From NCBI RefSeq assembly GCF_001677475.2, contig NZ_CP015229.1: a stretch of 64,000 nucleotides of DNA; one strand, written 5' to 3'. This document shows, one piece after another, positions 4,424 through 61,366 of this stretch (position 1 is the stretch's first letter; each line of letters starts with the position of its first letter). The notes beneath the pieces were generated by a model that was not told the DNA's origin, made no database searches, and saw only the letters and a list, made by a program, of their open reading frames with translations. A program made the translations under genes and the position numbers. This stretch comes from Escherichia coli. Its GTDB lineage: Bacteria; Pseudomonadota; Gammaproteobacteria; Enterobacterales; Enterobacteriaceae.

Positions 4424-4460
4424 GAAAGCCCCCGGAAGATCATCTTCCGGGGGCTTTTTT
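4424..4460 (+). terminator. his attenuator terminator (gcccccggaag...cttccgggggc followed by T6)
   Basis: Perfect GC-rich hairpin plus T-run between hisL and hisG. Confidence 0.9.
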
Positions 4461-4508
4461 ATTGCGCGATTGATAACGGTTCAGACAGGTTTAAAGAGGA
4501 ATAACAAA

Positions 4509-11565: not shown

Positions 11566-11640
11566 AGCGGATGCGATATTGTTGTCGCATCCGGCAAAAA
11601 AAAACGGGCAAGGTGTCACCACCCTGCCCATTTTCTTTAA
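11566..11640. terminator. Bidirectional terminator region between hisI and wzzB (two hairpins separated by A9, followed by T-rich run)
   Basis: gcggatgcgata...tgtcgcatccggc A9 gggcaaggtg...accctgccc attttcttt read in sequence. Confidence 0.7.
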
Positions 11641-15787: not shown

Positions 15788-17212
15788 TCAAGAAATTAAA
15801 GATATAATACTCCCAAGCACATTCGTAACATATTGCTTAGCCTGATTTTCATCACTGCCTTCAGCGTAACAACGGAGTTCAGGGGCATTTCCGGAAGGAC
15901 GGAGATGTATAATATCACCATTAGTTAAAATAAATCTTGCACCATCAGTTTCATCAATAGTGGAACAGGATAATGATTCATACCCTAATTTATTAAAGAA
16001 ATTATTAGGTGATGAAATGGCATTTTTTATAATTTGCTGACTTGACTCTGAAGGAAAGTTTTTCACTCTATCTGACCAAGTAAATCGCTGTGGAAGATTA
16101 TTAACCAGTTGAGAGATAGTACTATTGCGAGAAGCTATTAAGAGCATTAACGCTGGTAATACTGCATCTCGAGTAGGTAACGCATTTAATTCTTTGCCAT
16201 TAATTTGTAAATCGGAGGCAAGCAGAAAACCGCCATTAGCTTCAAAACCAGCGACTGAATCAAATTGTTTAGCAAGTTCTGAAAACGCTGCAATCACATA
16301 AGGAGAGCCAATTTTAGTCCGTTGTGTATTTGCAAATTTATTAGATTGTTCAATTGCTGTATTACAACTCACTGGAATAGCCAACGCCTTGATATTAAGT
16401 TCAATAGCCGTAAGTAATCCCAGAATATCGCCTCGTAGCCATTCACCATTTTCATCGGCAACTAAAGGGCGATCACCATCACCATCTGTTGAGAAAATTG
16501 CATCGAGATTGTATTTTTTAGACCACTCTCTTGCAAGTAGACGATCTTCTTCGCTAACTGCTTCCGTATCAATAGGAACGAACTCATCACTTCTACCGAG
16601 GGAGATGACCTCAGCACCCAATTGATTAAAAAGTGGAGCATATAAATCTCGTCCTGCACTAGAATGTTCATAGATCCCAATTCTCTTCCCCTTTAAAATA
16701 TCGGAATTAAAAAGAGAAACATAACGTTCTAGGTATGAATCCGCACCTTGAGTACTTGTTTCAAGATGAGGTAATACATCTACAGGAGAAAAAACATATT
16801 CACTATTTACTATTGCTAACTCATCCTCTTTTGTGATTTCACCATCTGGACGGTAAAATTTCAAACCATTACGGTCAAAAGGTATGTGACTACCGGTAAC
16901 CATTATGCAGGGGATGTTTTTCTGCATGGAATAATGAGCTAATGCAGGGGTCGGAATTACACCATGATATTCAACAGCGAACCCATGTTGTTTGATAGCG
17001 AACGCGCATGCCTGAGCAATTTCATAACTACTCGGGCGATTGTCAATGGCTAAAGCAACTTTATTAAAATTGTATTTGTCATCAATAACAGAAAGAAACG
17101 CATGACTGAAGGCTGCACAAACATCATGGGTAAAATCGATGACTAAACCACGAGCACCACTAGTGCCGAAAGCAATATTGCTATCGGTAATGATTTTGTT
17201 AGCATTTAACAT
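15788..17212 (-). CDS. O-antigen cluster phosphohexomutase (phosphomannomutase-like, divergent; TGSHIP and DGDGDR motifs)
   Basis: alpha-D-phosphohexomutase-like motifs in ORF translation; position downstream of manC; sequence clearly different from cps CpsG in this window. Confidence 0.65.
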   Translation of the reverse strand: MLNANKIITDSNIAFGTSGARGLVIDFTHDVCAAFSHAFLSVIDDKYNFNKVALAIDNRPSSYEIAQACAFAIKQHGFAVEYHGVIPTPALAHYSMQKNIPCIMVTGSHIPFDRNGLKFYRPDGEITKEDELAIVNSEYVFSPVDVLPHLETSTQGADSYLERYVSLFNSDILKGKRIGIYEHSSAGRDLYAPLFNQLGAEVISLGRSDEFVPIDTEAVSEEDRLLAREWSKKYNLDAIFSTDGDGDRPLVADENGEWLRGDILGLLTAIELNIKALAIPVSCNTAIEQSNKFANTQRTKIGSPYVIAAFSELAKQFDSVAGFEANGGFLLASDLQINGKELNALPTRDAVLPALMLLIASRNSTISQLVNNLPQRFTWSDRVKNFPSESSQQIIKNAISSPNNFFNKLGYESLSCSTIDETDGARFILTNGDIIHLRPSGNAPELRCYAEGSDENQAKQYVTNVLGSIISLIS

Positions 17213-17217
17213 GATGA

Positions 17218-17964
17218 TTACTTCTTAATAAATTGAGGAAGTTTGGATAGATTTTTATACGCTAAAGCTATTGGCCAGATAATACCATTCTGTTTCATAG
17301 CGCGAATATCTTCCATTGATTTATTGATCATGGAAGATGCTGAGCGATTGCTAATTCCACCAACACGCATTTTCACTAATACTTTTGGTAAGTAAGCTAT
17401 TGAAATACGCTGTTTTAAAATATAACGTAATAATGAGTCATAATCAGCAGATATTCGGTAATCTAATGAAAAACAACCAAACTCACTATAACAATCGCGT
17501 TTCATATAAAATGATGGGTGTGGCGGCATCCAACCTAGTTTCATCTTCAAACGGCTAAATGAGCCACTCTTCCATAATCTAATACGTTTAGTCGTATCAT
17601 TTTGGGCAACATACTCCAAATCACCATAAACAGCATCACACCCTGAACTTTCAAATGTTTTTACTATATCTGCAATAGCATCGTCATAAGCAAGTAAGTC
17701 ATCAGAGTGCAAAAATCCAATTATATCACCAGAAGCTGCTTGAATACCTTTATTCAGTGCATCATAAATACCATTGTCGGGTTCGCAAATGATTGTTGAA
17801 ACTCTTGTACATTTACTCTTGATTAGCTCTATTGTATTATCTTTCGATGCTCCATCTACAACTATATATTCAATATCTGAATGCGTTTGTTTTTCCAGAG
17901 AGAGTAATGTATCAAGAAGCGTTTTTTCACTATTATAAGTTGCTGTGATAATTGAAATCCGCAT
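17218..17964 (-). CDS. Glycosyltransferase family 2 (WcaE-like)
   Basis: N-terminal ISIITATYNSEKTL...VVDGASKDNT motif typical of GT2; O-antigen cluster context. Confidence 0.75.
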   Translation of the reverse strand: MRISIITATYNSEKTLLDTLLSLEKQTHSDIEYIVVDGASKDNTIELIKSKCTRVSTIICEPDNGIYDALNKGIQAASGDIIGFLHSDDLLAYDDAIADIVKTFESSGCDAVYGDLEYVAQNDTTKRIRLWKSGSFSRLKMKLGWMPPHPSFYMKRDCYSEFGCFSLDYRISADYDSLLRYILKQRISIAYLPKVLVKMRVGGISNRSASSMINKSMEDIRAMKQNGIIWPIALAYKNLSKLPQFIKK

Positions 17965-19370
17965 TAGTATCCAACTCCAGAAGAAGAAACTCTTATAACA
18001 TCATCCTCTTCCAAGTAGACTCCTGATCTAACCTCAATTATTTCAAGTGGGATCTTGCCAGGATTTTCAATGGCATGTGGAACACCAACAGGTATATATG
18101 TTGATTCATTTTCTGAAACAAGATAAGTTTTCTCCTCAAGATGAACTTTAGCTGTCCCCGAAACAACAATCCAATGTTCAGTACGATGGTAATGGATCTG
18201 CTTAGCGGTAATGTGACCCGGTAATACAATCACATGTTTAACCTGAAAGCGTTGCCCTTCAGCTATAGTGTCATGACTGCCCCAAGGACGAAAAATTTCC
18301 CGATGTTGTAAATATTCTGTTCGATTATTCTTTTTAAGCTGAGCTACGATGTTTTTAACTTGCTGAACTTTATCTTTATGAGCAACTAATACTGCATCTT
18401 TCGTTTCAACGACAACCAAATCCTTTACGCCCACGGCACCAATAAGTCTATGCTGCGAATAAAGATAACTATCTGTAGCATCCTCAACCAAAACATCACC
18501 ACGAATGGCATTGCCGCTTTGGTCTTTTGAACTTATTTCCCACAGCGCAGACCATGACCCAACATCACTCCATTGCGCATCCAATGGTACGACTACAGCT
18601 TCTGCTGTTTTTTCCATAACGGCATAGTCGATTGACTCTTCAGGGCAGCAAGAAAAAGAAGAATTATCCAAGCGGATAAAATCTAAATCTTGAGTCGAGG
18701 AAGCTAAGGATTGCTGACAACTCTCTAGAATATCTGGACGGAATTTTTTTAGTTCATCGATGAATACAGATGCTCTGAACATAAACATTCCACTATTCCA
18801 AAGATAACCGCCATCTGACAAATACCGCTGAGCTAATTCTAGCTCTGGCTTTTCAACAAAAGCTGCAACTTTATAACCTTGCCCACTAAGTGGATCACCT
18901 GACTTAATATAGCCATACCCTGTCTCTGGAGCTGTTGGAACAATGCCAAATGTGACCAACTTACCTTGCTGCGCAAACTCCTTCGCGGCCAAAACTGCTG
19001 TAATGAAACTATTCTCATCCTGAATTTCATGGTCAGCCGCAAGAACTAAAAGTATAGGATCCTCTCCACTTGCCGTTGCCTGAAGCGCTGCAAGGGCTAC
19101 AGCTGGTGCCGTATTGCGCCCAACAGGCTCAAGCAAAATCCCACTATGCTTTAAACCAACTTTACGTAATTGTTCAGCAACGATGAAACGATGTGATTCA
19201 TTACAAATGATCAAAGCAGGATTGTGTTCAACCTTTTCTAGCCGTCGCATAGTCTCTTGCAACATAGTTAAGCGGCTATTTAAAGACAGAAATTGTTTCG
19301 GATAAAGTGTACGTGAAAGAGGCCATAATCTGGTACCAGATCCACCGGCCATGACAACGGGAAGTAGCAT
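17964..19370 (-). CDS. manC: Mannose-1-phosphate guanylyltransferase / mannose-6-phosphate isomerase (ManC), O-antigen copy
   Basis: ORF translation closely parallels cps CpsB in this window ([19 protein letters not shown]... C-terminal cupin); AT-rich codon usage. Confidence 0.9.
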   Translation of the reverse strand: MLLPVVMAGGSGTRLWPLSRTLYPKQFLSLNSRLTMLQETMRRLEKVEHNPALIICNESHRFIVAEQLRKVGLKHSGILLEPVGRNTAPAVALAALQATASGEDPILLVLAADHEIQDENSFITAVLAAKEFAQQGKLVTFGIVPTAPETGYGYIKSGDPLSGQGYKVAAFVEKPELELAQRYLSDGGYLWNSGMFMFRASVFIDELKKFRPDILESCQQSLASSTQDLDFIRLDNSSFSCCPEESIDYAVMEKTAEAVVVPLDAQWSDVGSWSALWEISSKDQSGNAIRGDVLVEDATDSYLYSQHRLIGAVGVKDLVVVETKDAVLVAHKDKVQQVKNIVAQLKKNNRTEYLQHREIFRPWGSHDTIAEGQRFQVKHVIVLPGHITAKQIHYHRTEHWIVVSGTAKVHLEEKTYLVSENESTYIPVGVPHAIENPGKIPLEIIEVRSGVYLEEDDVIRVSSSGVGY

Positions 19371-19375
19371 ATCTA

Positions 19376-19837
19376 TTACCTTGATATAAAATAATTTTTG
19401 GTATATTGATGAACTGTAGTGCTATTAAGCAACGTTACTACATCAAACCACTTGTAGGAATTATGCTGAATCGTTGGTAGGCGAAGTTGCTGCGGATTAA
19501 TTTGAATTTCATATCCATGCACTACGTAGTGTGTAGAAAAATCTAGTTCAGAAAAATTGTCATTGTAAAAGTGTTCATACACACCAAGAAATATGGCCTC
19601 ACCAAGACTAGTTTGAACGCCTAACTCTTCATATGTGATCCTTTTAAAAGCATCCTCGAATGACTCGTCCTTAAAAATTCGCCCTCCAGGCACAAACCAA
19701 TAATTTTTTGCGGGGCGATTCAGGCGCTGCCCAAGCAGCGCCTCTCCTTTATCATTTCTAATTATGAGGTCAATCGAGATTAGAGGAGTATGCTTGACTA
19801 TTGTTTTAAATAACTCATATTCTAATCTCTTTTTCAT
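19376..19837 (-). CDS. gmm: GDP-mannose mannosyl hydrolase (NUDIX), O-antigen copy
   Basis: NUDIX-type protein parallel to cps Gmm/WcaH in this window (YWFVPGGR motif). Confidence 0.85.
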   Translation of the reverse strand: MKKRLEYELFKTIVKHTPLISIDLIIRNDKGEALLGQRLNRPAKNYWFVPGGRIFKDESFEDAFKRITYEELGVQTSLGEAIFLGVYEHFYNDNFSELDFSTHYVVHGYEIQINPQQLRLPTIQHNSYKWFDVVTLLNSTTVHQYTKNYFISR

Positions 19838-19839
19838 AA

Positions 19840-20805
19840 CTATCCCCGAAAAGAATCAATATTCTCAAGAAACCATTGATATGTTAATGATAGACCTTCA
19901 TGTAAATTATAGCGATGTAGCCAGCCCAAGTTTTTGAGTCGGGTAACGTCCATAAGCTTTCGCGGGGTGCCATCTGGTTTGGTCGCGTCAAAAACAATTT
20001 TTCCTTGATAACCCACTACAGAAGCCATTGTTTCAGCCATTTCACGTATAGAACAATCCACCCCCGTACCAACATTAATATGAGATAACATTGGTTGTGT
20101 ATTTTGTTGATAGATTGTGTCCTCTAACTCCATCACATGAACCGAGGCAGCAGCCATATCATCAACATATAAAAACTCACGCATCGGTGTTCCCGTGCCC
20201 CAGACAATAACTTCTTGTGCACCACTTTCTTTTGCCTCATGGAATCTACGCATAAGCGCCGGAATAACATGGGAGTTTTCAGGATGGAAGTTATCATTCG
20301 AACCATAAAGATTAGTCGGCATTACACTTCTATAATCGCGACCATATTGACGATTATAAGACTCACATAATTTTATGCCCGCAATCTTAGCAATTGCGTA
20401 TGGCTCATTAGTTGGCTCAAGTATGCCCGTCAAAAGTGCAGACTCTTTCATCGGCTGCTCTGCAAATTTTGGATAAATGCAGCTAGAGCCTAAAAAAAGT
20501 AATTTTTGAATTCCAACCTTGTGAGCTGAATGTATAATATTACTCTCAATCATGAGATTCTGATAAATGAATTCTGCTGGAAATGTATTATTGGCATAAA
20601 TACCACCTACTTTTGCCGCAGCAAGATAAACCTGATCAACCCTCTCTCTCTCAAAAAATGCCTCAACATCCTTCTGCACGGTCAGATCGAGTTCTTTGTG
20701 TGTTTTAACCACTAACTCGATATCATCACGCAGCGATAATTGTCGGCAAATAGCAGAGCCAACCATGCCCTGGTGCCCAGCAACATATACTCTTTTCTTT
20801 ATCAT
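19840..20805 (-). CDS. fcl: GDP-L-fucose synthase (GDP-4-keto-6-deoxymannose 3,5-epimerase/4-reductase), O-antigen copy
   Basis: 321 aa, colinear with cps Fcl in this window ([12 protein letters not shown]...). Confidence 0.9.
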
Positions 20806-20808
20806 GTA

Positions 20809-21942
20809 TTAACGCTCCAGAGAAACCGAAACATCATAACCATGGCTTTTAAGAAGTGCATGTTGTTTCGCTTTTAACAAATCGCTAGCAACCATTTCTG
20901 CACACATCTCTTCAACTGTAATCTCTGGTTCCCAGCCTAATAGATTTTTTGCTTTTGCAGGGTCACCTAAGAGTGTTTCAACTTCAGCAGGACGGAAATA
21001 ACGAGGATCAACCCGAACTATAACGTCTCCAACATTTACACCAATAGCACAATCGGAAACTTTATTAACTACTGTGGCTATCTCATCTACACCCTCACCA
21101 GTGAATTCAAGTTCAAGTCCGACTTCTTTAGCAGCCATACGGACAAATTCACGCACAGATATCTGTTTACCTGTGGCGATGACAAAATCCTCTGGATGAT
21201 CTTGCTGAAGCATCATCCATTGCATGCGAACATAATCTTTAGCGTGTCCCCAGTCACGCAACGAATCCAGATTACCCAAATATAAGCATTGTTCGATCCC
21301 CTGAGAAATATTAGCTATTGCACGAGTAATTTTACGAGTAACAAAAGTTTCTCCACGGCGTGGCGATTCATGGTTAAAAAGAATACCATTACAAGCATAT
21401 ATACCATAAGATTCACGGTAGTTAACTGTTATCCAGTAAGCATACATCTTAGCTACAGCATAAGGCGAACGCGGGTAGAATGGAGTTGTTTCACGCTGAG
21501 GAATCTCTTGCACTAAACCAAAAAGTTCTGAAGTAGATGCTTGATAGAAACGTGTTTTTTTCTCCAGCCCACAGATTCGTATTGCTTCTAATAAACGTAA
21601 TGTACCTATTGCATCTACATCTGCTGTATATTCTGGTGACTCGAATGATACTGCGACATGGGATTGTGCACCAAGGTTATAAATTTCATCCGGTTGAATT
21701 TCTTGGATTAAACGGATCAGATTCGATGTATCTGTTAAATCCCCATAGTGTAAAATAAAATTAGGCTCATCAACGAATCGTGATTGATATATATGATCAA
21801 TTCTATCAGTGTTAAATGACGATGCTCGGCGTTTTATACCATGTACTTCATAACCTTTTTCAATAAGAAATTCAGCAAGATATGAACCATCTTGTCCAGT
21901 TACGCCTGTGATAAATGCAACTTTTTTATTCATTTTAATCAT
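20809..21942 (-). CDS. gmd: GDP-mannose 4,6-dehydratase, O-antigen copy (start may be at MNKK, 21930)
   Basis: Colinear with cps Gmd in this window ([37 protein letters not shown]). Confidence 0.9.
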
Positions 21943-21951
21943 GTTATGTTC

Positions 21952-22983
21952 CTAAATATTCAACTCATTATAAACTTTAATCGTTTCATTAACACATTTT
22001 GACCATGAAAATTTTTGCGCCTGCAGTAAACCTCTTTCGATCATAACATTTCTTTTTAAATTAACTAATTCTAAAGCTTCTTTTAACGTAAACTCATTAA
22101 TATCATCAATATAAATAGGCGCATTCCCCCCTACTTCCGGCAACGAGGATGTGTTTGCACAAATAACTGGACATCCGGCCTGCATAGCTTCTAGGACAGG
22201 TATTCCAAACCCCTCATAACTGGAAGGGTAAACAAGTGCATATGCAGTATTATACTGTATATTTAAATCTTCATTACTCAAAAATGTAAAATGTTCATAT
22301 CTATTTTTTAAATATTTTTCAAGGAGTTCTCTTTCATATTTTTTAAGCGAGCCTCCGCCTACAATTGTAAGCTTTAAGCCATGTAATTTCCCTACAGCTT
22401 TGACTGCAAGAACGAAATTTTTATAACCTTCTCTGGCACCGACAAACAAAACTGAATTATTTACTCTCATATCAGATATGTTAGAAATATGTTTATATGA
22501 TGGGGATACACCATTATAAATCACTCTAATTTTATCTTCACTAATTGGACAGTACTTAAGTAAATCTCTAGCAGTGTTGTTTGAAATACAAATTACGATA
22601 TCACTATTCTTGATAGCATGATATTTTTGAAGAGAATGAATAAATTTTGACATTCCTCCCCTGTATTTTTCATAGGTAAAATCATGAACAGTTGTAACAT
22701 TTTTCACATTCAAATTAGGATTTTTATGAACTCGATAATAACTTGAGTGTAAAACCCTAGTTTTAATATCACTTACATTTCTATATCTTTCTAAAATTCT
22801 TGGCTCACGATATTGCAACTTTAAGTCACTTGTATCAAACTCAAATTCTTTATTTTTATACAATAGAATTTCAGCTTGGTAATTTGATTTCACCATTCCT
22901 TGGATCAACTCATTAAAGTATACACTTATTCCACCAAATGATTGGAGATTATAAATAATCCCATCGATAGTTACCATTATCAT
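21952..22983 (-). CDS. Glycosyltransferase family 1 (GT4-like)
   Basis: C-terminal EGFGIPVLEAMQAGCPVI motif typical of GT-B retaining glycosyltransferases. Confidence 0.75.
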   Translation of the reverse strand: MIMVTIDGIIYNLQSFGGISVYFNELIQGMVKSNYQAEILLYKNKEFEFDTSDLKLQYREPRILERYRNVSDIKTRVLHSSYYRVHKNPNLNVKNVTTVHDFTYEKYRGGMSKFIHSLQKYHAIKNSDIVICISNNTARDLLKYCPISEDKIRVIYNGVSPSYKHISNISDMRVNNSVLFVGAREGYKNFVLAVKAVGKLHGLKLTIVGGGSLKKYERELLEKYLKNRYEHFTFLSNEDLNIQYNTAYALVYPSSYEGFGIPVLEAMQAGCPVICANTSSLPEVGGNAPIYIDDINEFTLKEALELVNLKRNVMIERGLLQAQKFSWSKCVNETIKVYNELNI

Positions 22984-24236
22984 CGCCCTCGCAAGGTAAT
23001 ACGTTCGATTAGAACGAACAATATCAAAAAGAAGATCAGTAACAATACATATGCAGGCCCAGAAAAATAAGTTCCAAATGAAGGTGAAATGAGAATTATA
23101 GAAAGCAAAAAATAGGATGCAGAGTTCGTAATTACTTTTGCATTAAACATTTTAAGCTTAGCAAAAATATAGCCATAAAAGATATTCATAGGTGAAAGAA
23201 AAGTTAAAATGACCAGTCCAACATATCCATAATCAACAAAATTATCCATCCCTTTTGAAAAAGCAGGTGTATGCCCCGACTCTGCAGCTCCTGGATAATA
23301 GATTTCATTTACATGCAGAAATCCATATACAAAAGGTTTATCAGGAAACAAACCTCTCGGTATATAAGACCAAAACTGGCTGAAATAGACTGTGCCATTG
23401 AAAAATTTAACCACACCTTTATCAATATCTTGCAGCAAATAAATACTGTTTTGATACTGGTCAAAATAAGACAATACTACATCGACATTCATATTTCCAA
23501 TAGCTAAAAATAAATTATAGAGAATGGCACACGCTGCCAGAGGTGTAACTAAAATCAGGCCAAATTTTAGAAATCTAGATTTATTAAGACTTAACACTGC
23601 AAGATAAAAAATCGCAAATGAAAGAATAAAGGTTTTCGATCCAAGAAAAAAAACCAAGGTACAATAGAATATCGCGCATAAAAATAATTTTATTTCCGAG
23701 CGTAAAGCCAACGCTCTAGAAAAATAAGATACTGAAAGCATACTTAAAGAAAAGGCATACAAAAAACCATTACCTTCTCGATAGTTTTGATAACCATCCC
23801 TGGGATTCGTCAACCATCCAGAAATACCTATTTCTGACTTTGAAGAAAGAAGAACAAATAATGTAACAAACAGAACCAATGTAATATTTGATATTCTTTT
23901 TAATTTTGTATGCGAAATTAAGCAAGTTAAATAGCTCTCTCTATTTTTGAATATTATATTAAAAATAAAATAAAATAAAATTATAGATAAAACACCCACA
24001 AAAGAGTATATGTTATATATGAATAAAGCCTCATTATAATATTGATTTAACGCAAAGTCTGAACCATAGAAAAGAGGGGCCAGAATATTTTCCAATAGAA
24101 AAACCGGGAATAAAATAATGGCGCAAATGGTAAAGGGATTGATAATTGTAAGTCTTAGCGTTTTCGTCGCTAATAAAGAAAAAGAAAAATATAGTACTAC
24201 AGCGAGTGTAACATTTAAACAATATATTATTACCAC
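22980..24236 (-). CDS. wzy: O-antigen polymerase Wzy (candidate)
   Basis: 418-aa highly hydrophobic multi-TM protein with no catalytic motifs of other families, very AT-rich, located in O-antigen cluster. Confidence 0.6.
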   Translation of the reverse strand: MVIIYCLNVTLAVVLYFSFSLLATKTLRLTIINPFTICAIILFPVFLLENILAPLFYGSDFALNQYYNEALFIYNIYSFVGVLSIILFYFIFNIIFKNRESYLTCLISHTKLKRISNITLVLFVTLFVLLSSKSEIGISGWLTNPRDGYQNYREGNGFLYAFSLSMLSVSYFSRALALRSEIKLFLCAIFYCTLVFFLGSKTFILSFAIFYLAVLSLNKSRFLKFGLILVTPLAACAILYNLFLAIGNMNVDVVLSYFDQYQNSIYLLQDIDKGVVKFFNGTVYFSQFWSYIPRGLFPDKPFVYGFLHVNEIYYPGAAESGHTPAFSKGMDNFVDYGYVGLVILTFLSPMNIFYGYIFAKLKMFNAKVITNSASYFLLSIILISPSFGTYFSGPAYVLLLIFFLILFVLIERITLRGR

Positions 24237-24246
24237 ATCCTCTCCC

Positions 24247-25056
24247 CTATCTTAAACCGAATAATTTGCGCTTAATTGATTTTGTTTTTTGATATAATGT
24301 TTGAGGAACAATCATTTTAAATAAAACTTGCAATGTATTATAGACAGCAAATTTTATTTTGTATGATAAGGGCATATGAATATTATTTTTAGCTAGAATG
24401 TAAGCAATTTCTTTCTTGACTAATTTTTTATTAGACTCATTTGAACTTACACCCGAAGCATCCATTATGGATACAGGAAAATTCACATAATGCAACGTAG
24501 ATGGATCTATTGTTCTTATCATAAAATCACTATCAGCAGCAATTTTTAGTGTTGTATCAAAGCGATTAGCATTATCTTTAAAAAAGCTAGAATGCTGGAA
24601 AGTACCCTGATGAGGAGGAAGTGAAGGCCGACCACATTCCCACTTTTTCTGTATTTTTCCGTAAACTCCAACTATATTATCTTTATCACTAAAATATACA
24701 TCACCATATATAGTTGTTGCACTCATATTTTCGTGAATGGCATTTGCTATTTTTGAAAGAGTATTATTTTCATAGAATGTATCGCCAGCTCCCATAAAAA
24801 TAACCCAATCGCCATTTATGTGAGGAAGAGCTTTATTCCAAGCGTCGTATATTCCTTGATCAGATTCGCATAAAAAATAATCTATAATATCAATATATCT
24901 ATAAATATATTCTAGTGTTGATTTGTTAGAGTTGCCGTCTATAACAATCCATTGAATATTACAATAATTTTGATTTTTAATAGATTCTGCAGTCTTGCAG
25001 AAATCTTCCTCACAATTATACGTCGATGTTATTATAGTAATCTGTAAGCCATTCAT
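24247..25056 (-). CDS. Glycosyltransferase family 2
   Basis: ITIITSTYNCEEDF...VIDGNSNKST N-terminal GT2 signature. Confidence 0.75.
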   Translation of the reverse strand: MNGLQITIITSTYNCEEDFCKTAESIKNQNYCNIQWIVIDGNSNKSTLEYIYRYIDIIDYFLCESDQGIYDAWNKALPHINGDWVIFMGAGDTFYENNTLSKIANAIHENMSATTIYGDVYFSDKDNIVGVYGKIQKKWECGRPSLPPHQGTFQHSSFFKDNANRFDTTLKIAADSDFMIRTIDPSTLHYVNFPVSIMDASGVSSNESNKKLVKKEIAYILAKNNIHMPLSYKIKFAVYNTLQVLFKMIVPQTLYQKTKSIKRKLFGLR

Positions 25057-25062
25057 CTTAAC

Positions 25063-25773
25063 TCACTTATTTTTCATAGCAATATATTTTAATCTTAATT
25101 CTTTAATTAATGTCTTTACTTTACTATCAGTGGAATACTCAATATTAAACGTGCCAGAGACTCCTCTTATTTTGGGAATAGTTGTTCCAATAACTCCTTT
25201 TAATTTATTATTTTTAATTTGCTCAAAAAAAATGTGTTCTAAATAAACACCATCAAGGTCACGCACAGATTTATAAGAATTAGCAAAAAAGTCCCAATAT
25301 ATTTTTTTATTTACAACATAAAATCTTGTATCAATCATATTTTCATTCAGAAAAGGAACTGGTATAAAAAAAGCTTTACCATTGAATGCATTTATACATT
25401 GCTTATAATTATCGACGTATAGTTTTGATGTTATTTTTGCAAAACTTTCAGCATTAGACAAATAGCGGCTATTCATTAATGCATACTCAATTATTTCACC
25501 CTCTCCGTAACCTTTACCATAAGATTGAACACTTTCTATATCATTTTTGAAATGTATTATCTCGATCGAATCTTTATTAAGTATTTGTTTATCATTATGA
25601 ATATCTTTCGTCAAATCATAATCACTACCATCACATATTACTATAGAATCAGCATTCTTTGACAACTCTCTTATCGCTTTCAATGTATGTAATAATCTTG
25701 AATTTTCATCAGAAAGATTTGTAAGAGGAGCATTAGGTGAGATACAAGAAGTCACTAATACTGGGATTTTCAT
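25063..25773 (-). CDS. Hypothetical O-antigen cluster protein, ~236 aa (possible glycosyltransferase of unassigned family); start ATG overlaps wzx stop (ATGA)
   Basis: ORF with ATGA coupling to wzx; contains DGSDYD (DxD-like) motif; no family recognised by eye. Confidence 0.4.
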   Translation of the reverse strand: MKIPVLVTSCISPNAPLTNLSDENSRLLHTLKAIRELSKNADSIVICDGSDYDLTKDIHNDKQILNKDSIEIIHFKNDIESVQSYGKGYGEGEIIEYALMNSRYLSNAESFAKITSKLYVDNYKQCINAFNGKAFFIPVPFLNENMIDTRFYVVNKKIYWDFFANSYKSVRDLDGVYLEHIFFEQIKNNKLKGVIGTTIPKIRGVSGTFNIEYSTDSKVKTLIKELRLKYIAMKNK

Positions 25774-27014
25774 TTTTTCTTTTCCAGCCTCAACGAAATT
25801 AACATTAGTATAAAATAATCGACGGTGACTCTTGCGCTCCAAGCATAAGCCACACCTGCTACAGAAAAATACATAATTGAAAAATATAAAACCAGCAGAT
25901 ATGGAATACATTCAACAAGATGAATGAGCCCCGTAATATTTGCATAACCTTTCGATTGGATTTGAGCAAATGGAACTTGAGCAAGAGAGTTGAATACAAA
26001 ACCTACTAATAATATTTGAAATATATAAGGACTCTCAGTGCTATATTGTTTTCCAAGCCATAAAGTTATAATATCACCAGCCTTCAAAGAAAACATAATA
26101 GCTATAACTATACTAGTTACACTTATTAATAACGTAGCCTCTTTTATTATTTTTCTCCGCTCATCTTTTGTATTATTCTTGCATAGAGCAGGAAAAACTG
26201 TCCTTGCTATAGTTGTCGGTAATATAAGTAACTTTGAAATTGCATCTGCAGGAGCAATATATAACGAAGCTTTAGCGGGGCCAACTGCATTTGATAAGAT
26301 AAATCGATCAATATTTGTAAGCAATGGGTTAATTATACTACTAATACTCGCCCATCCTCCAAAACTTAATAGTGCTTTTGTTTTACTTAGACTAAAATCC
26401 ATTGTAAGCCTATTATTTCTAAAAACAAAGAACACGCTTAAAAGAGCACCAACTATTCTCGCAATCACCAATCCCAAAGTAGCATTAAGCAAACCAACAT
26501 TTCCATGAATGAAAATAACTGGTAGTAGCGCAGTTAACACACCTGTAATTGTTTTTTGTACATTCAATAATTTGAACTTTTCATATCCTTCTAATATCCC
26601 CCAACAAACCATATTAAGAAGATAAAATGGCAGACAGTAGGATAAAATACTTATAGCATATGCAACACTTTCAGTTTGTTCCGGACCACTAATTAAGGAT
26701 GCAATCTTATGGTCGCAGTAATAAAAAATTACGGCTACAACAACACCAATAGATAATGTTAATAAAAATGATGTTGTAATTATTTGACTGGTTGCCTTTT
26801 TGTCGTTTTTATTTAATGATATTTCACGCACAACGGCTCGGGAAAGTCCGAGATCAAATATACTTGCGTATCCAACTATTGTAAAAAACATTAAAAAAAA
26901 GCCAAAGTTAGTTATTCCTAACTCCCTTGCCAAATACCCCATCGCAGGTATTGACAATAAAGTTGGGATTGCATACCCAACCAAATTTATTAAACTATTT
27001 ATTTTAATACTCAT
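25770..27014 (-). CDS. wzx: O-antigen flippase Wzx (polysaccharide transporter family)
   Basis: 414-aa protein with ~12 predicted TM segments, located immediately after rmlC. Confidence 0.7.
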   Translation of the reverse strand: MSIKINSLINLVGYAIPTLLSIPAMGYLARELGITNFGFFLMFFTIVGYASIFDLGLSRAVVREISLNKNDKKATSQIITTSFLLTLSIGVVVAVIFYYCDHKIASLISGPEQTESVAYAISILSYCLPFYLLNMVCWGILEGYEKFKLLNVQKTITGVLTALLPVIFIHGNVGLLNATLGLVIARIVGALLSVFFVFRNNRLTMDFSLSKTKALLSFGGWASISSIINPLLTNIDRFILSNAVGPAKASLYIAPADAISKLLILPTTIARTVFPALCKNNTKDERRKIIKEATLLISVTSIVIAIMFSLKAGDIITLWLGKQYSTESPYIFQILLVGFVFNSLAQVPFAQIQSKGYANITGLIHLVECIPYLLVLYFSIMYFSVAGVAYAWSARVTVDYFILMLISLRLEKKK

Positions 27015-27031
27015 TTTTTAATTATCTTTTG

Positions 27032-27574
27032 TCAATAATTATTTTGTATAAATGGAGTGCCCAAACAATCTTTTTGTGATAAAAGAGGTTCTTTGTATAA
27101 TTGCCAATCTATGTTAAGTAAAGCATCATTCCAAATGATACATTTCTCATGTTCTTTTGAGTAAAAATTATTGGTCTTATACAATATTTCTGAACCTTCT
27201 TCTTTTACATAAAAACCATGTGCAAATCCCTCAGGGATCCACAACTGGCGCTTATTCTCAGCAGATAAATTCACCCCAACCCACTTGCCAAAAGTAGGTG
27301 ACGATTTACGAATATCAACCGCAACATCAAAAACCTCACCAACAACGCAACGTACCAATTTCCCTTGCGCATAAGGTTCTAACTGATAATGCAGCCCGCG
27401 TAAAACACCTTTACTAGACTTCGAATGGTTATCCTGGACAAATTCAACCTTACGTCCTACAGCTTCTTCGAATACTTTCTGATTAAAGCTTTCCATAAAG
27501 AAACCACGCTCATCACCAAAAACTTTCGGCTCGAAAATTAACACATCAGGAATTTCTGTTTTAATTACGTTCAT
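27032..27574 (-). CDS. rmlC: dTDP-4-dehydrorhamnose 3,5-epimerase RmlC
   Basis: 180-aa cupin; rmlBDAC order. Confidence 0.9.
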   Translation of the reverse strand: MNVIKTEIPDVLIFEPKVFGDERGFFMESFNQKVFEEAVGRKVEFVQDNHSKSSKGVLRGLHYQLEPYAQGKLVRCVVGEVFDVAVDIRKSSPTFGKWVGVNLSAENKRQLWIPEGFAHGFYVKEEGSEILYKTNNFYSKEHEKCIIWNDALLNIDWQLYKEPLLSQKDCLGTPFIQNNY

Positions 27575-27578
27575 TTTA

Positions 27579-28457
27579 TTAATAACCTTTAATCATTTTC
27601 AGCAGATACTGTCCATAAGCATTTTTTTTCAGCGGCTCCGCTAATGCTTTCACCTGTTCAGCATCAATAAACCCTTTACGGTAAGCAATTTCTTCTGGGC
27701 AGGAAACCTTTAGTCCCTGGCGCTCTTCAATGGTGGCAATGAAGTTGCTTGCTTCAATAAGACTCTGATGTGTCCCCGTATCCAGCCATGCATAACCACG
27801 CCCCATCATGGCAACGGATAAACGCCCCTGTTCCATATAAATACGGTTAATATCGGTAATTTCCAGTTCACCACGGGCAGAAGGCTTAAGGTTTTTCGCC
27901 ATTTCGACAACGTCGTTATCATAGAAATAAAGCCCGGTTACCGCATAATTACTTTTTGGTTGTAGCGGTTTTTCTTCCAGGCAGATCGCCGTACCGTTTT
28001 TATCAAACTCAACGACACCGTAGCGTTCAGGATCATTAACGTGATAGGCAAATACCGTTGCACCACTTTCTTTGTTAACAGCGACATCCATTAACTTCGG
28101 CAGATCATGACCGTAGAAGATATTATCACCAAGAACCAAAGCACAATCATCACCACCGATAAACTCTTCACCGATAATAAACGCCTGCGCAAGCCCATCT
28201 GGAGTCGGTTGCACTTTGTACTGAAGATTTAGCCCCCACTGGCTACCGTCACCCAGCAGTTGTTGAAAACGAGGAGTATCCTGTGGCGTACTAATAATCA
28301 GAATATCGCGAATACCCGCCAACATCAGTGTAGAGAGCGGGTAATAGATCATCGGCTTATCATAAATAGGTAATAGCTGTTTACTGACAGCCATAGTCAC
28401 AGGATAAAGACGTGTACCAGAACCACCCGCTAAAATAATACCTTTACGCGTTTTCAT
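27579..28457 (-). CDS. rmlA: Glucose-1-phosphate thymidylyltransferase RmlA
   Basis: [19 protein letters not shown] nucleotidyltransferase N-terminus; 292 aa. Confidence 0.95.
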
Positions 28458-28514
28458 TTCATCATTCCTTTTAATTCATCTTGCTCCACCATCACGAACA
28501 AGATGCAAAAACTA

Positions 28515-29414
28515 TTAAATTGCTGTAGTCGTAAATAATTCGTTGAGCATTCGTTTCACACCAACCTGCCACTCAGGCAAGACAAGCGCAAAGTTCTGCT
28601 GAAATTTTTCTGTATTAAGGCGAGAGTTATGTGGACGACGAGCTGGTGTAGGATAGGCTGTTGTTGGTACTGCGTTGAGCTTGTTGAGTGCAAGGGGAAT
28701 ACCTGCTTTGCGCGCCTCTTCAAAAACCAGCGCAGCATAATCGTGCCAGGTTGTGGTACCACTGGCTACCAGATGGTACAAACCTGCGACTTCCGGTTTA
28801 TTCAGTGCCACACGAATAACATGTGCCGTACAATCAGCCAGCAGCTCAGCACCTGTTGGCGCACCAAATTGATCATTTATCACAGCCAGTTCTTCGCGCT
28901 CTTTTGCCAGACGCAACATCGTTTTGGCGAAGTTATTTCCTTTACCTGCGTATACCCAGCTGGTACGGAAAATAAGATGCTTCGCGCAATGTTCCTGTAA
29001 CGCTTTTTCTCCGGCTAACTTGGTTTCACCGTAAACATTTAGCGGTGCGGTTGCATCCGTCTCCAGCCATGGCGTGTCGCCATTTCCAGGGAAGACGTAG
29101 TCAGTTGAGTAATGAATTACCCAAGCCCCAACTTCATTAGCCGCTTTTGCAATTGATTCAACGCTAGTCGCATTGAGTAATTGTGCAAATTCGGGTTCTG
29201 ACTCAGCCTTATCTACTGCGGTGTGAGCCGCAGCATTAACAATAACATCAGGTCGAATTCTTTTGACTGTTTCAGCTACACCTTCAGGATTACTAAAATC
29301 ACCACAATAATCAGTGGAGTGAACATCAAGAGCAATCAAATTACCCAAAGGTGCCAGAGCACGCTGTAGTTCCCAACCTACCTGCCCTGTTTTGCCGAAA
29401 AGGAGGATATTCAT
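28515..29414 (-). CDS. rmlD: dTDP-4-dehydrorhamnose reductase RmlD
   Basis: [20 protein letters not shown]; 299 aa. Confidence 0.95.
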   Translation of the reverse strand: MNILLFGKTGQVGWELQRALAPLGNLIALDVHSTDYCGDFSNPEGVAETVKRIRPDVIVNAAAHTAVDKAESEPEFAQLLNATSVESIAKAANEVGAWVIHYSTDYVFPGNGDTPWLETDATAPLNVYGETKLAGEKALQEHCAKHLIFRTSWVYAGKGNNFAKTMLRLAKEREELAVINDQFGAPTGAELLADCTAHVIRVALNKPEVAGLYHLVASGTTTWHDYAALVFEEARKAGIPLALNKLNAVPTTAYPTPARRPHNSRLNTEKFQQNFALVLPEWQVGVKRMLNELFTTTAI

Positions 29415-30499
29415 TACTGGCGGCCCTCATAGTTCTGTGCAATCCACGATTGATAGGCACCACTTTTCACATTATCAACCCATTTTGTATTGGACAGGTA
29501 CCATTCCACTGTCTTCCGAATCCCGCTCTCAAACGTTTCCTGCGGTTTCCAGCCCAATTCGCGGCTAATCTTCTCAGCATCAATCGCATAACGGCGATCG
29601 TGTCCCGGGCGGTCGGCAACATAAGTAATTTGCTCACGATAAGATTTCTCTTTCGGTACAATCTCATCCAGCAAATCACAAATAGTAAGCACTACATCGA
29701 TGTTTTTCTTTTCGTTGTGTCCGCCAATATTATAGGTTTCGCCTGCTTTACCTTCAGTAACGACTGTATATAACGCTCGAGCATGATCCTCGACATACAA
29801 CCAATCGCGAATTTGATCCCCTTTACCATAAATAGGTAATGCTTTACCTTCCAGAGCATTCAGAATAACCAATGGAATCAATTTTTCCGGGAAATGATAA
29901 GGGCCATAATTGTTAGAGCAATTAGTCACAATGGTCGGTAAACCATAGGTACGTTTCCACGCGCGGACTAAATGATCGCTGGATGCTTTGGATGCGGAAT
30001 AAGGGCTGCTTGGTGCGTAAGCTGTTGTCTCAGTAAATAAGGGTAATTTTTCTTTATTATTTACTTCGTCAGGATGAGGCAAATCACCATAGACTTCGTC
30101 AGTAGAAATATGATGAAAACGGAAGCTATTTTTCTTGTCGCTATCAAGAGCAGACCAGTAATTGCGAGCGGCTTCCAAAAGGACATAAGTACCAACAATA
30201 TTGGTTTCAATAAATGCCGCAGGGCCTGTAATTGAACGATCCACATGGCTTTCAGCAGCCAGGTGCATCACTGCATCCGGCTGATGCAGAGCAAAAATCC
30301 GCGCCATTGCAGCAGCATCGCAAATATCCGCATGTTCAAAAACATAGCGTTCAGAATCAGAAACATCAGCAAGTGATTCCAGGTTTCCGGCGTACGTTAA
30401 TTTATCGACATTAACAACACTATCCTGCGTATTATTTATAATGTGACGAACTACAGCAGAACCAATAAATCCTGCGCCACCAGTAACAAGTATTTTCAC
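29414..30499 (-). CDS. rmlB: dTDP-glucose 4,6-dehydratase RmlB
   Basis: [20 protein letters not shown]; 361 aa SDR. Confidence 0.95.
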
Positions 30500-30573: not shown

Positions 30574-30612
30574 CACGCTACCGCCCCTGGCTTTACAGCT
30601 ACCAGAGCACTG
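30574..30612 (-). promoter_or_regulatory. JUMPstart element containing ops (GGCGGTAGCGTG) upstream of the O-antigen operon
   Basis: Minus-strand read: cagtgctctggtagctgtaaagccaggggcggtagcgtg, matching the remembered 39-bp JUMPstart consensus. Confidence 0.9.
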
Positions 30613-35841: not shown

Positions 35842-35902
35842 TTTTTCCTCATAAATTTGATGCCAGGTGAGGCTGTGTTTGTTTTGTTCGTTGCCGCTTT
35901 TT

Positions 35903-36090
35903 GCCTGATGCGACGCTGGCGCGTCTTATCAGGCCTACAAGACCCGAGCACAGAACCGTAGGCCGGATAAGGCGTTCACGCCGCATCCGGCATTCAGTGC
36001 CTGATGCGACGCTGACGCGTCTTATCAGGCCTACAGGTCCCGAGCACAGAACCGTAGGACGGATAAGGCGTTTTACGCCGCATCCGGCAA
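35903..36090. repeat. BIME/REP cluster: two tandem ~90-bp units (gcctgatgcgacgctg[gc/ac]gcgtcttatcaggcctaca...ccgtagg.cggataaggcg...ccgcatccggca)
   Basis: Two near-identical palindromic units read directly; ORF-track ORFs here are spurious. Confidence 0.9.
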
Positions 36091-36116
36091 CCATTGCCGG
36101 AACCGAAAACAACAAC

Positions 36117-40497: not shown

Positions 40498-40587
40498 GTC
40501 GTTACCCTTTTTCAGGCAATAGTTGGCCCTGACCGAAGCGGCCAATTTTGTTTTTGTCGTTATTTACATCGCGGTTCGGCATTCATT

Positions 40588-40688
<101 letters not shown>

Positions 40689-40689
40689 T

Positions 40690-42126
40690 TTACACCCGTC
40701 CGTAGCGATCCGCGAAGCGCACCACATCATCCTCTTCGAGATAAGAGCCGGAGCGCACTTCAATTAAATCGAGCGGAATTTTCCCCGGGTTTTCCAGGCA
40801 GTGCTTCGCCCCCAGCGGAATATAAATGGACTCGTTTTCACCAAGCAGTTTGATATCACCGTCAATAGTGACTTTTGCCGTTCCCGCGACAACCACCCAG
40901 TGTTCCGCCCGGTGATGGTGCATCTGTACCGACAAGCCTTCGCCCGGTTTCACGGTGATGCGTTTCACCTGGTAGCGGTCGCCCGCGTCGATAGAGTCAT
41001 ATTTGCCCCACGGGCGATAGACTTCGCGATGTACCCGATGCTCATGGCGACCATCGGCTTTGATCTGCTCGACCACTTTTTTCACATCCTGCACCGCATT
41101 GCGGTCGGCAATCAGCACCGCATCTTTGGTCTGCACTACCACCAAATCTTTCACCCCGACGGTGGTGACCAGGCCAGATTCGGCATACACATAGCTGTTT
41201 TCAGTTTTGTGATTAATCACATCGCCATGGCAAACGTTGCCCTCGGCGGTGTGGGCGCTGATCTCCCATAAAGAGGACCAGGAGCCGACATCGCTCCAGC
41301 CCGCATCCATCGGCACCACAACAGCATCTGCCGTGCGTTCCATAACTGCGTAATCCACCGACTCTTCCGGGCAGGCCAGAAACGCTTCTTCATCCACACG
41401 AATAAAATCGAGATCCGGATCGACGGCGCTCATCGCTTTTTCACAGGCGTTGAGGATGTCCGGGCGATATTTTTTCAGTTCTTCGAGATAGCGTCCGGCG
41501 CGGAACAGGAACATGCCGCTGTTCCAGTAATATTCGCCGCTTGCCACATAGGCCTGGGCGGTTTCCAGATTCGGTTTTTCGACAAACTGCGCCACTTCAA
41601 AGGCCACCGTATCCTGCTCACCCGCCGACACTTCACCGCGACGAATATAGCCATAACCGGTTTCTGGTAGATCCGGCACAATGCCGAAGGTCACCAGCTT
41701 ACCTGCTTCGGCATATGGCATGGCATTACGCACGGCGGCACGGAACGCGTCTTCATCGGCAATCACATGATCCGCCGCCAATACCAGCATTAACGGGTCG
41801 CTCTCCGGGCTATGACGTTTTGCCGCCAGCGCCGCCAGTGCAATGGCAGGTGCAGTGTTACGCCCTGCCGGTTCGAGAATAATGTTCTCGGTGAGTTTGT
41901 TCAGTTGACGCAGCTGTTCCGCGACAATAAAGCGGTGCTGCTCATTACAAATCACCACCGGGCTTTCGCACTCCACGCCGTTCAGGCGACAGATGGTGGT
42001 TTGCAGCATGGTGAGATCGCCTTTCAGGCATAAAAACTGCTTGGGGTAAAGTACGCGGGAAAGCGGCCATAAGCGGCTCCCGGAGCCACCTGCCATCACA
42101 ACTGGATAGAGTTTCGACTGCGCCAT
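40690..42126 (-). CDS. cpsB: Mannose-1-phosphate guanylyltransferase CpsB/ManC
   Basis: 478 aa; synteny. Confidence 0.95.
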
Positions 42127-51038: not shown

Positions 51039-51078
51039 GCCGGATGCGGCGTGAACGCCTTATCCGGCCTACGGGGCG
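51039..51078. repeat. REP element between wcaA and wzc
   Basis: gccggatgcggcgtgaacgccttatccggcctacg read directly. Confidence 0.8.
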
Positions 51079-55028: not shown

Positions 55029-55066
55029 CACGCTACCGCCCCTGGCTTTTAGCTACCAATACACTG
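55029..55066 (-). promoter_or_regulatory. JUMPstart/ops element in the long 5' leader of the colanic acid operon
   Basis: Minus-strand read: cagtgtattggtagctaaaagccaggggcggtagcgtg (ops GGCGGTAGCGTG). Confidence 0.85.
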
Positions 55067-59713: not shown

Positions 59714-59734
59714 GGTATCCTCAATGGGCCTGAA

Positions 59735-60316
59735 TTAGTCTTTATCGATTCGGCTGGCTACCGCGCCCTGCTGGTTGCGATATTTCGCATCTTCACGGCG
59801 GTTGTAAGGTCGCGCCGCCGGGCCGGAAAGCGGCTCAAAGCTCAGCGCACCAATTAACATGCCCGGACGCAGCGCCAGCGGCAACTTACCGGAGTTGTAG
59901 AACTCCAGCACAATGCAGCCAGACCAGCCCGGATCGATACGGTGCGCGGTGACGTGCACCATAAGCCCCAGACGCGCCAATGAGGAACGCCCGTCCAGCC
60001 ATCCCACCAGATCGGCTGGCAGCGTCACTGACTCCAGCGTCACCGCCAGCGCCAGCTCTCCTGGGTGAAGATAAAACGCCTCGCTTTCATCGAGTACGAT
60101 CTCATCGCTCATCACGCGGTCAAGCGCGGCGCTCACTTCATCTTTGGGACCGCTCAGATCGATAAACGCTGCCGTGTGACCACGGAAGGTACGAAATTTA
60201 TTGCCCAGGCGCACATCCACCGTCGCGCCATTAATACGCTCCACTGGCGGACGTGGGTTGATCGACAAACGGCCTTCATCAAGCCAGGCTTCAATATCTC
60301 GGTCACACAGACGCAT
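59735..60316 (-). CDS. dcd: dCTP deaminase Dcd
   Basis: 193 aa [17 protein letters not shown]... Confidence 0.95.
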
Positions 60317-60407
60317 GGCATTTTCTCCTTTCGCGCATCACTCCCTTAACGCCAATTACGTCAAGGGCATACCAGGTTATCACTGAACGGTACACAATTT
60401 ATCAAGC

Positions 60408-61049: not shown

Positions 61050-61366
61050 ATATTTAGCGACCTGATTAACCTGGATGTTAGGAAGGGGGCGACGAAGCGC
61101 CAAACGCGGCAATTATAGGGATTTCATCCGCCTGATACCAGTCGAATAGCGTTGCCGCGCGCTCAGAGTAATTGTTGACGAATAATTCCCGGTGGCAAAT
61201 TACGTTGTTCAGTTTTAATGCAAGGTAAAAATTGTTATACGCAGTTGCGCAAATTATCCGCCTTTACGTCACTTTATGAGCAATTCGCATATAAAATGTA
61301 AAACTTTTGTACTAGCATAAACACAGAAACGAATACTGGCGACCTGGTCTTGCGGATAAAGCGGTA

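Follow-up and report, generated by a model that had tools for sequence, protein, structure and literature searches.

Y and Z2 REP elements, arranged as BIME-2 at two of three sites, in intergenic gaps of the colanic acid operon of Escherichia coli

The stretch of DNA analysed here, referred to as the window, comprises 64,000 nucleotides of Escherichia coli contig NZ_CP015229.1 and covers yeeF-his-O-antigen-colanic acid-udk. Every colanic acid gene is encoded on the minus strand, as judged from the open reading frame (ORF) list and from matching annotated genomes, and the gene names used below (wcaK/wzxC, cpsG/cpsB and wcaA/wzc) match the annotation of the matching E. coli genomes. Seven complete REPs are spread over three intergenic gaps of this operon (Table 1). 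An ops/JUMPstart element upstream of wza is the only one found for the operon. Our scan found no promoter-like sites in the wcaK-wzxC, cpsG-cpsB and wcaA-wzc gaps, terminator-like sites are absent from all three, a T/U tract is missing after every REP on both strands, and the sequence 3' of the REPs is A-rich or mixed. Region-wide, terminator- and promoter-like counts are at or below shuffle expectation. The position of the only ops/JUMPstart element upstream of wza, together with gaps free of terminators and promoters, argues that the REPs are co-transcribed with the operon. The RefSeq K-12 record for the region holds CDS rows only and no REP features, and no RAYT gene was found within the window.

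Table 1. Repeat features of the three colanic acid operon gaps (window coordinates unless stated otherwise)
Feature	Position	Strand	Details
wcaK-wzxC gap	between wcaK start 35841 and wzxC stop 36117		275 bp
3' flank of array	35876..35900	-	partner of the 5' arm in the minimum-energy fold; counterpart of empty-site CGAAAACAACAAC, diverged here
BIME-2 array	35902..36089		two 96-bp tandem units; Tandem Repeats Finder, direct repeat, REP typing
Z2 REP, copy 1	35903..35938	-	GTAG-first on minus (mRNA) strand; no mismatch to the Z2 consensus applied; hairpin -20.5 kcal/mol on mRNA strand
Y REP, copy 1	35958..35991	+	GTAG-first on plus strand; 0 mismatches; -21.3 kcal/mol on mRNA strand
Y-Z2 head-to-head junction	35961..36031	+	match to Rfam naRNA4 (RF02564)
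Z2 REP, copy 2	35999..36034	-	1 mismatch, in the loop
Y REP, copy 2	36054..36088	+	3 differences; -15.6 kcal/mol
5' arm of array-flanking hairpin	36104..36116	-	mRNA sense GUUGUUGUUUUCG
Z2 REP	40588..40623	-	cpsG-cpsB gap
Y REP	40635..40668	+	cpsG-cpsB gap; -19.2 kcal/mol
Half-REP GCCTGATGCGACG	40676..40688	-	13 nt; 1 nt from the cpsB stop codon (40690-40692)
Single Y REP	51039..51072	-	wcaA-wzc gap; 0 mismatches; identical in K-12
K-12 wcaK-wzxC gap	NC_000913.3 2118405-2118679

In order to establish family identity, the window was scanned for the REP head motif GCCKGATGCGRCG, with up to one mismatch, and for the tail motif CTTATCMGGCCTAC, with up to two mismatches. The head motif occurs 10 times against 0.44 expected, a count reached by none of 100 shuffles, and for the tail motif the count is 7, with 0.42 expected. 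Eight of the 10 head matches and all seven tail matches fall inside the three gaps. The REP/BIME identity offered by the original prediction, which had been made from the letters alone, was thus borne out by a consensus search. The two head matches outside the gaps are both weak. One, at 11583-11595, corresponds to a degenerate hairpin that resembles a REP and follows hisI. The other, at 60604-60616, was rejected as a REP; it lies inside a minus-strand ORF (60408-61112, udk) and was taken as a chance match.

REPs are recognized by an imperfect palindrome, a GTAG at the 5' foot and a two-base stem mismatch that is required for TnpA-REP binding (PMC3333891). All seven elements of the window are imperfect palindromes of 34-36 nt, whose predicted hairpins range from -15.2 to -21.4 kcal/mol whichever strand is folded. 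Each of the seven carries the GTAG/CTAC tag, the same G.T/C.T two-base interruption of the stem recurs in every one, and all seven positions are extragenic. Individual REPs differ from the Y or Z2 consensus at 0-3 positions, and REP-containing queries hit a median of at least 37-39 places per E. coli genome among the matches listed.

BIME-2 elements consist of Z2 and Y REPs in inverse orientation, joined by short linkers (S, s, l or r) and present in tandem copies that vary between strains (PMC3333891). Alternating inverse Y and Z2 REPs were found at 35903-36088 and at 40588-40668, with linkers of 19, 7 and 11 nt between REPs, and the tandem copies vary in number, with two 96-bp units here and 0-5 elsewhere in E. 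coli. The alternative composite, BIME-1, combines a Y REP with a Z1 REP across a long L linker that bears an IHF site. A Z1-type REP was the best match at no site in the window, no long linker is present, and the IHF consensus WATCARNNNNTTR was not found in the three gaps. Because Y and Z2 REPs alternate across short linkers, are amplified in tandem and are accompanied by no IHF consensus, the elements fit BIME-2 and exclude BIME-1. They are ordinary E. coli Y/Z2 REPs, organized as BIME-2 at two sites and as a lone Y REP at the third. A link of these copies to a RAYT is assumed.

One junction of the main array also matches an Rfam small-RNA family. The plus strand of 35961-36031 scores 79.7 bits against the naRNA4 model (RF02564), for which the gathering score is 59.5. 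The mRNA strand of the same segment scores 55.4 bits, and all other units score 29-39.5 bits, each below threshold. The naRNA4 match, a consensus derived independently that supports the identification, reflects membership in the repeat family and not a small-RNA gene.

The wcaK-wzxC gap holds the largest of the arrays. Tandem Repeats Finder places one array at 35902-36089 (period 96, 1.9 copies, 93% matches), and the repeat search recovered the same two copies at 96-nt spacing, plus internal palindromes. The original prediction had described two tandem units of about 90 bp at this site; the count of two stands, and the unit measures 96 bp. Each unit consists of a Z2 REP, a 19-nt tail-to-tail linker, a Y REP and a 7-nt head-to-head linker, so that the order across 35903-36088 reads Z2(-) Y(+) Z2(-) Y(+). 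In the last Y REP (36054..36088), the stem foot is weakened (GGACGG) and the loop is longer. The array is bracketed by the arms of a hairpin, and these flanks still pair around it in the minimum-energy fold of the window. The corresponding K-12 gap is 99% identical to that of the window.

At the cpsG-cpsB site, tandem REPs had been proposed across 40588-40688. REPs are present there; the content is one Z2-Y pair (40588-40668) followed by a half-REP. In the Y REP, two compensatory changes in the stem foot, from GGCC to GGTC on one side and from CCGG to CCGA on the other, keep the helix. The half-REP is a second copy of the Z2 REP head and indicates the phase of a tandem unit of 88 bp. A 13-nt direct repeat, GCCTGATGCGACG, lies on both sides of the unit. 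K-12 has the half-REP only and lacks the Z2-Y pair. The bracketing by this direct repeat explains the gain or loss of whole units and the 'scar' in K-12. In the predicted minimum-energy fold, the half-REP pairs with the head arm of the Y REP and encloses the cpsB UAA (-89.1 kcal/mol, versus -83.9 kcal/mol for the canonical two-hairpin fold). No UAA-enclosing structure is predicted for K-12, in which the Z2-Y pair is missing.

The wcaA-wzc site had likewise been described as tandem, at 51039-51078. A REP is indeed present, but it is a lone element, neither tandem nor a BIME. At the other two sites, ORFs of 88 and 76 amino acids cross the main array and one of 101 amino acids (40548-40853) spans the cpsG-cpsB pair, in keeping with the claim that the repeats generate spurious ORF-track entries.

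Variation within the species was assessed in complete E. coli genomes sampled evenly along the BLAST ranking, with representatives compared at the three gaps. Unit counts in other strains rest mainly on gap lengths in 96-bp steps, because the motif scan misses some overlapping copies. By this measure, the wcaK-wzxC gap ranges from 71 bp with no unit (L004), through 145 bp with one truncated unit (L005), 179 bp with one unit (O157:H7), 275 bp with two units (the window and K-12) and 371-372 bp with three units (L002 and L008), to 563 bp with five units (L007). A further allele of 161 bp (L006) contains an unrelated boxC-like repeat. The cpsG-cpsB gap measures 100 bp with no REP (L093), 104 bp with the half-REP only (K-12), 192 bp with one 88-bp unit (the window) and 280 bp with two units (L092). 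The wcaA-wzc gap is 92 bp with one Y REP in the window and K-12, 128 bp in a rearranged allele with an additional REP-like palindrome (L091), and 177 bp in a further rearranged allele with additional REP-like palindromes (L090). We attribute the differences in unit number to unequal recombination or slippage between repeats.

The 71-bp allele has a perfect 13-bp hairpin (GUUGUUGUUUUCG / CGAAAACAACAAC arms), and the BIME sits at the loop position of this hairpin in other alleles. Genome NZ_AP045812.1, which shares the O36-family O-antigen cluster of the window, has zero units at wcaK-wzxC. Finding 0-5 units among strains with the same operon implies that any stabilising or processing role would be modulatory and dispensable. 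REPs at these loci have also been suggested to mark recombination junctions (Iguchi et al. 2011, PLoS One; PMC3158064). The pair compared was the window and strain E06; no other complete genome has a near-identical O-antigen cluster of the O36 family. Divergence in this pair shifts at about 15-16 kb and at about 27 kb, not at the BIMEs, and a role as recombination junctions was rejected for the pair.

A wider comparison covered 80 loci around WcaI homologues of other Enterobacteriaceae, in which flanking genes were placed by tblastn and the gap was measurable in 65. In most of the 65, the wzxC-wcaK gap (as named in mRNA order) is 14-40 bp long and repeat-free. Longer gaps contain insertions that differ by lineage: E. 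whittamii has one Z2 REP within the same flanking hairpin, Salmonella enterica subsp. arizonae a single REP and Citrobacter amalonaticus a pair of REPs; Lelliottia, Pluralibacter and Pseudenterobacter have boxC-like repeats, and the L078 isolate an ERIC-like element. In the cpsB-cpsG gap, a REP of some local type usually comes directly after the cpsB stop, followed by a conserved algC RNA motif. Based upon the short, repeat-free gap in most genera and the lineage-specific insertions in others, the E. coli arrays are derived, lineage-specific and dispensable insertions at repeat-accepting sites, and not conserved operon signals.

Folding of the mRNA strand gave -128.2 kcal/mol for the wzxC-wcaK gap (z = -8.98 versus shuffled controls) and -68.9 kcal/mol for the cpsB-cpsG gap (z = -5.65). 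The wzc-wcaA gap, with its single REP, gave a weaker z of -2.4. RNA folding of the units (REP hairpins of -15 to -21 kcal/mol) agrees with the REP assignment.

Stabilisation and processing of mRNA are the standard role for transcribed REPs. Such a role, regarded as probable in the original prediction, is plausible in this operon by analogy. It is in keeping with the pronounced folding predicted for the two larger gaps (z = -9.0 and -5.7) and with recent experiments on REP325. Our preferred reading, which we hold with high confidence, is that Y/Z2 REPs and BIME-2 occupy permissive gaps and, judging from related arrays, would most likely function as an exonuclease barrier combined with partial Rho-assisted attenuation, an adjustable and non-essential arrangement. 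The REPs would be co-transcribed from the minus strand within the roughly 20-kb operon mRNA carrying ops/JUMPstart, and their transcripts are predicted to form very stable hairpins in that mRNA. These hairpins could act as a barrier to 3'-to-5' exonucleases and protect the upstream mRNA segment, and together with Rho they might partially attenuate transcription into downstream genes. The combined outcome would favor proximal over distal genes, in the order wza-wzc > wcaA-cpsB > cpsG-wzxC > wcaK-M. RfaH is recruited at the ops element, and may suppress Rho-dependent attenuation in this operon and leave little effect.

The analogy draws chiefly upon REP325, the BIME-2 studied in most depth, in which tandem Y and Z2 REPs separate two operon genes of the same strand, and where upstream mRNA is stabilised and downstream expression is attenuated ~8-10-fold in a partly Rho-dependent manner, such that yjdM is stabilised and yjdN is lowered (bioRxiv 10.64898/2026.03.23.713779). 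REP hairpins are also exonuclease-resistant, and mark and protect the 3' ends of Rho-dependent transcripts (PMC6061677). REP effects are strongly context-dependent, with no across-the-board rise in mRNA half-life (bioRxiv 10.64898/2026.03.23.713779).

The foremost alternative is that the repeats are selfish or neutral passengers, in which RAYT-dependent insertion and unequal recombination operate in tolerant gaps with no measurable effect on colanic acid expression. We consider this clearly less probable than the preferred reading. The presence of 0-5 copies at one site of the same operon favors it, as do the polymorphism of all three sites and the 14-40 bp, repeat-free ancestral wzxC-wcaK gap of most genera; a range of 0-5 units while the operon stays intact is explained just as well by neutrality. 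Unrelated families in that gap (boxC-like in Lelliottia, Pluralibacter, Pseudenterobacter and one E. coli, ERIC-like in L078) likewise indicate hot-spot behaviour rather than a conserved regulatory element. However, exonucleases and RNA polymerase or Rho would be unlikely to ignore hairpins of such stability (z = -9), and deletion of REP325 shifts neighbouring genes 3- to 10-fold (bioRxiv 10.64898/2026.03.23.713779). The occurrence of some REP type after the cpsB stop in many genera also hints at retention at that site.

A role at the DNA level, which would be compatible with the RNA roles, seems to us rather unlikely. It supposes that the BIME-2 array is a strong site for DNA gyrase that works independently of transcription, with most cleavage in the Y REPs, and that it absorbs the positive supercoils generated by transcription of the 20-kb operon or helps to organise local topology. 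The array does have the Y and Z2 composition that defines BIME-2, and gyrase cleavage is over-represented in a subset of BIME-2, with Y REPs preferred (PMC6379681). On the other hand, cleavage is confined to that subset, the names wcaK, wzxC, cpsG and wcaA are absent from the supplementary text of the gyrase Topo-seq study (PMC6379681), and the operon works in strains with zero units at wcaK-wzxC. A related model of nucleoid compaction by HU with naRNA4 was not reproduced (bioRxiv 10.64898/2026.03.23.713779).

An effect on translation would have the ribosome stall at a stop codon closely followed by a REP, with the output of the upstream gene, here cpsB, lowered through tmRNA; we regard this as improbable. 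Work by Liang, Rudd and Deutscher in Mol Cell in 2015 reportedly found that a REP near a stop codon stalls the ribosome, with output falling via tmRNA, and the effect is said to be limited to roughly 15 nt from the stop. The half-REP begins 1 nt past the cpsB stop codon, and the UAA-enclosing fold described above is predicted for the window and not for K-12. The complete REPs, however, begin 28, 21 and 24 nt past the wzxC, cpsB and wzc stops, beyond that reported limit, and the alternative fold is a prediction favoured by just 5 kcal/mol. It is very improbable indeed that the hairpins are intrinsic terminators, or that the gaps hold internal promoters, and thereby split the operon into separate transcription units: the stems are stable and GC-rich, but a Rho-independent terminator calls for a U tract directly after its hairpin, and this arrangement is absent from all three gaps on both strands, no terminator- or promoter-like site lies there, and the only ops/JUMPstart of the operon precedes wza.

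The reading of the repeats as a barrier and partial attenuator in permissive gaps can be extended to relative gene expression within the operon. The wcaK-wcaL-wcaM genes serve pyruvylation and late steps, and wza-wzb-wzc are the export genes. We speculate that the number of BIME-2 units could serve as a strain-variable, recombination-tuned expression dial for the distal wcaK-wcaL-wcaM and cpsG-wcaJ-wzxC genes relative to wza-wzb-wzc, and that, in alleles with the cpsB-cpsG pair, pairing between the half-REP and the Y REP across the cpsB stop may also lower ManC (CpsB) output; we consider this extension doubtful. If it were true, strains would differ in the amount or modification of capsule with coding and promoter sequence unchanged. 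The natural alleles with 0, 1, 2, 3 and 5 units in one inducible operon provide a ready series for a 'tunable terminator-stabiliser' model of REPs, including its behaviour with RfaH-modified polymerase. Recognition of the REPs and BIME-2 prevents the calling of the 76-101-amino-acid ORFs that cross the repeats, and explains the tandem-repeat and naRNA4 matches as a repeat family and not as genes. Importance beyond correct annotation is little.

The elements belong to a long-known family, the most common of the small palindromic repeats in E. coli, and lie at already described sites. The original prediction had regarded them as typical E. coli content and not novel, and both prior publication of the same three gaps (PMC3158064) and the high copy number per genome agree with that view. 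Iguchi et al. studied O157 strains of E. coli and reported 34-36-bp REPs in the wcaK-wzxC, cpsG-cpsB and wcaA-wzc gaps, and further REPs at yeeZ-hisL and hisI-wzz (PMC3158064). Between strains they described REP-containing insertions or deletions, of two or four REPs at wcaK-wzxC and, in one strain, of two at cpsG-cpsB, with one REP at wcaA-wzc (PMC3158064). Our analysis agrees on all three gaps and on REPs of 34-36 bp. The earlier study made no Y/Z2 or BIME-2 typing, which is given here, and covered six strains, whereas our comparison of complete genomes found 0-5 units and variation at wcaA-wzc as well.

Among known repeat systems, the Pseudomonas REPINs of the REP-RAYT type (Nunvar et al. 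2010, PMC2817692) share with the window inverted REP doublets that can be folded as one long hairpin. The REPIN doublet is the presumed unit mobilised by a single-copy RAYT (PMC2817692). The REP sequence class of Pseudomonas differs from that of the window, and the window is without a RAYT gene. BIME-1 (RIP/RIB) resembles the elements described here in containing a Y REP and in lying between genes, and is set apart by its Z1 REP, long L linker and IHF site, which are missing here. BIME-2, as defined by Bachellier, Gilson and Hofnung (in Ton-Hoang et al. 2012, PMC3333891), agrees in its inverse Z2 and Y REPs, short linkers, tandem arrangement and strain-variable copies, linker motifs S/s/l/r aside; the wcaA-wzc element differs from it as a solitary REP. 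The naRNA4 model (RF02564) was built from the REP325 BIME-2 of K-12, and the nucleoid-condensing role behind the naRNA4 name is contested and was not reproduced (bioRxiv 10.64898/2026.03.23.713779). Compared with REP325, which has six units, the window has two, its head-to-head linker is 6 nt shorter, and its above-threshold naRNA4 match lies on the strand antisense to the operon mRNA. The array of the window nevertheless shares the architecture of REP325 (yjdM-yjdN, E. coli K-12), in that both are tandem units of Y and Z2 REPs placed between same-strand genes of one operon.

For the mRNA across the cpsB-cpsG gap, the minimum-energy structure is predicted to join the half-REP near the end of cpsB to the Y REP's head arm, so that the cpsB UAA is enclosed. 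This fold has a predicted energy of -89.1 kcal/mol, versus -83.9 kcal/mol for a fold with canonical REP hairpins. The REP pair is absent from the K-12 gap, and the structure around the cpsB UAA is likewise absent from its predicted fold. The stretch from the BIME to the cpsG start codon contains the algC RNA motif (Rfam RF02929), which scores 77.3 bits where the gathering threshold is 33.8. In the majority of the other Enterobacteriaceae loci that were fetched, the cpsB-cpsG gap shows this motif too.

Positions of features in the window and in comparison loci
Feature	Position	Strand	Remark
STnc240, enterobacterial sRNA	window 1525-1599	-	Rfam match, 68.6 bits
Histidine operon leader	window 4339-4462	+	Rfam match, 132.6 bits
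JUMPstart element with ops core GGCGGTAGCGTG	window 30574-30612	-	upstream of rfbB (O-antigen operon)
algC RNA motif	window 40502-40551	-	
Half-REP structure enclosing cpsB UAA	window 40676-40704	-	predicted
JUMPstart element with ops core GGCGGTAGCGTG	window 55029-55066	-	upstream of wza (colanic acid operon)
wzxC-wcaK gaps with unrelated repeat families	L006 (E. coli) 451-611; L062, L053, L073, L078		other genomes
E. coli E06: O-antigen gmd split by an IS; wzzB and wzy annotated as pseudogenes	L089 17661-19984, 8504-9481, 21031-22287		

Repeats of other families occupy the wzxC-wcaK gap elsewhere. In Lelliottia, Pluralibacter, Pseudenterobacter and a single blood isolate of E. coli, it holds BoxC-like elements (CCCTCTCCC...GGGAGAGGG); in one Enterobacteriaceae isolate, it holds an ERIC-like element. 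Judging from these sequences, the gap looks like a hot spot at which small repeats insert.

JUMPstart elements precede both wza and rfbB, which makes each of these two long operons a candidate for antitermination that depends on RfaH. In the colanic acid operon, such antitermination could cancel whatever attenuation the BIMEs might cause.

Relatedness was sampled at 57900-61000 and 29440-55606 of the window by comparison with the complete E. coli genomes in the collection, none of which matched the sampled stretches at 99% or above. The top match, over asmA-dcd-udk, was 98.9%; identity over the colanic acid region was 96.6% for K-12 and 93.4% for E. whittamii. By these sequence comparisons, the lineage of the window is E. 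coli-like, without a close representative among the complete genomes in the collection. The O-antigen cluster (15788-30499) belongs to the O36 family, wzx and wzy being so named in matching genomes; among 5,426 complete genomes of E. coli, only 8 share it. Strain E06 is about 99.5% identical to the window over the core (about 16-26 kb) but only about 97% over the flanks, with shifts in divergence at about 15-16 kb and about 27 kb. An ISKpn26-family IS5-like element interrupts its O-antigen gmd, and its wzzB and wzy are annotated as pseudogenes; the corresponding ORFs of the window are intact.

The Rfam matches to STnc240 and the histidine operon leader are both expected in such a region. After the hisI stop codon, the window carries a degenerate REP-like hairpin (GCGGATGCGA...TCGCATCCGGC), followed by a GC-rich hairpin with a T-tract (together 11568-11640), the latter of which looks like the his operon terminator. 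The hisI-wzz gap is among the REP-containing gaps listed by Iguchi 2011 (PMC3158064).
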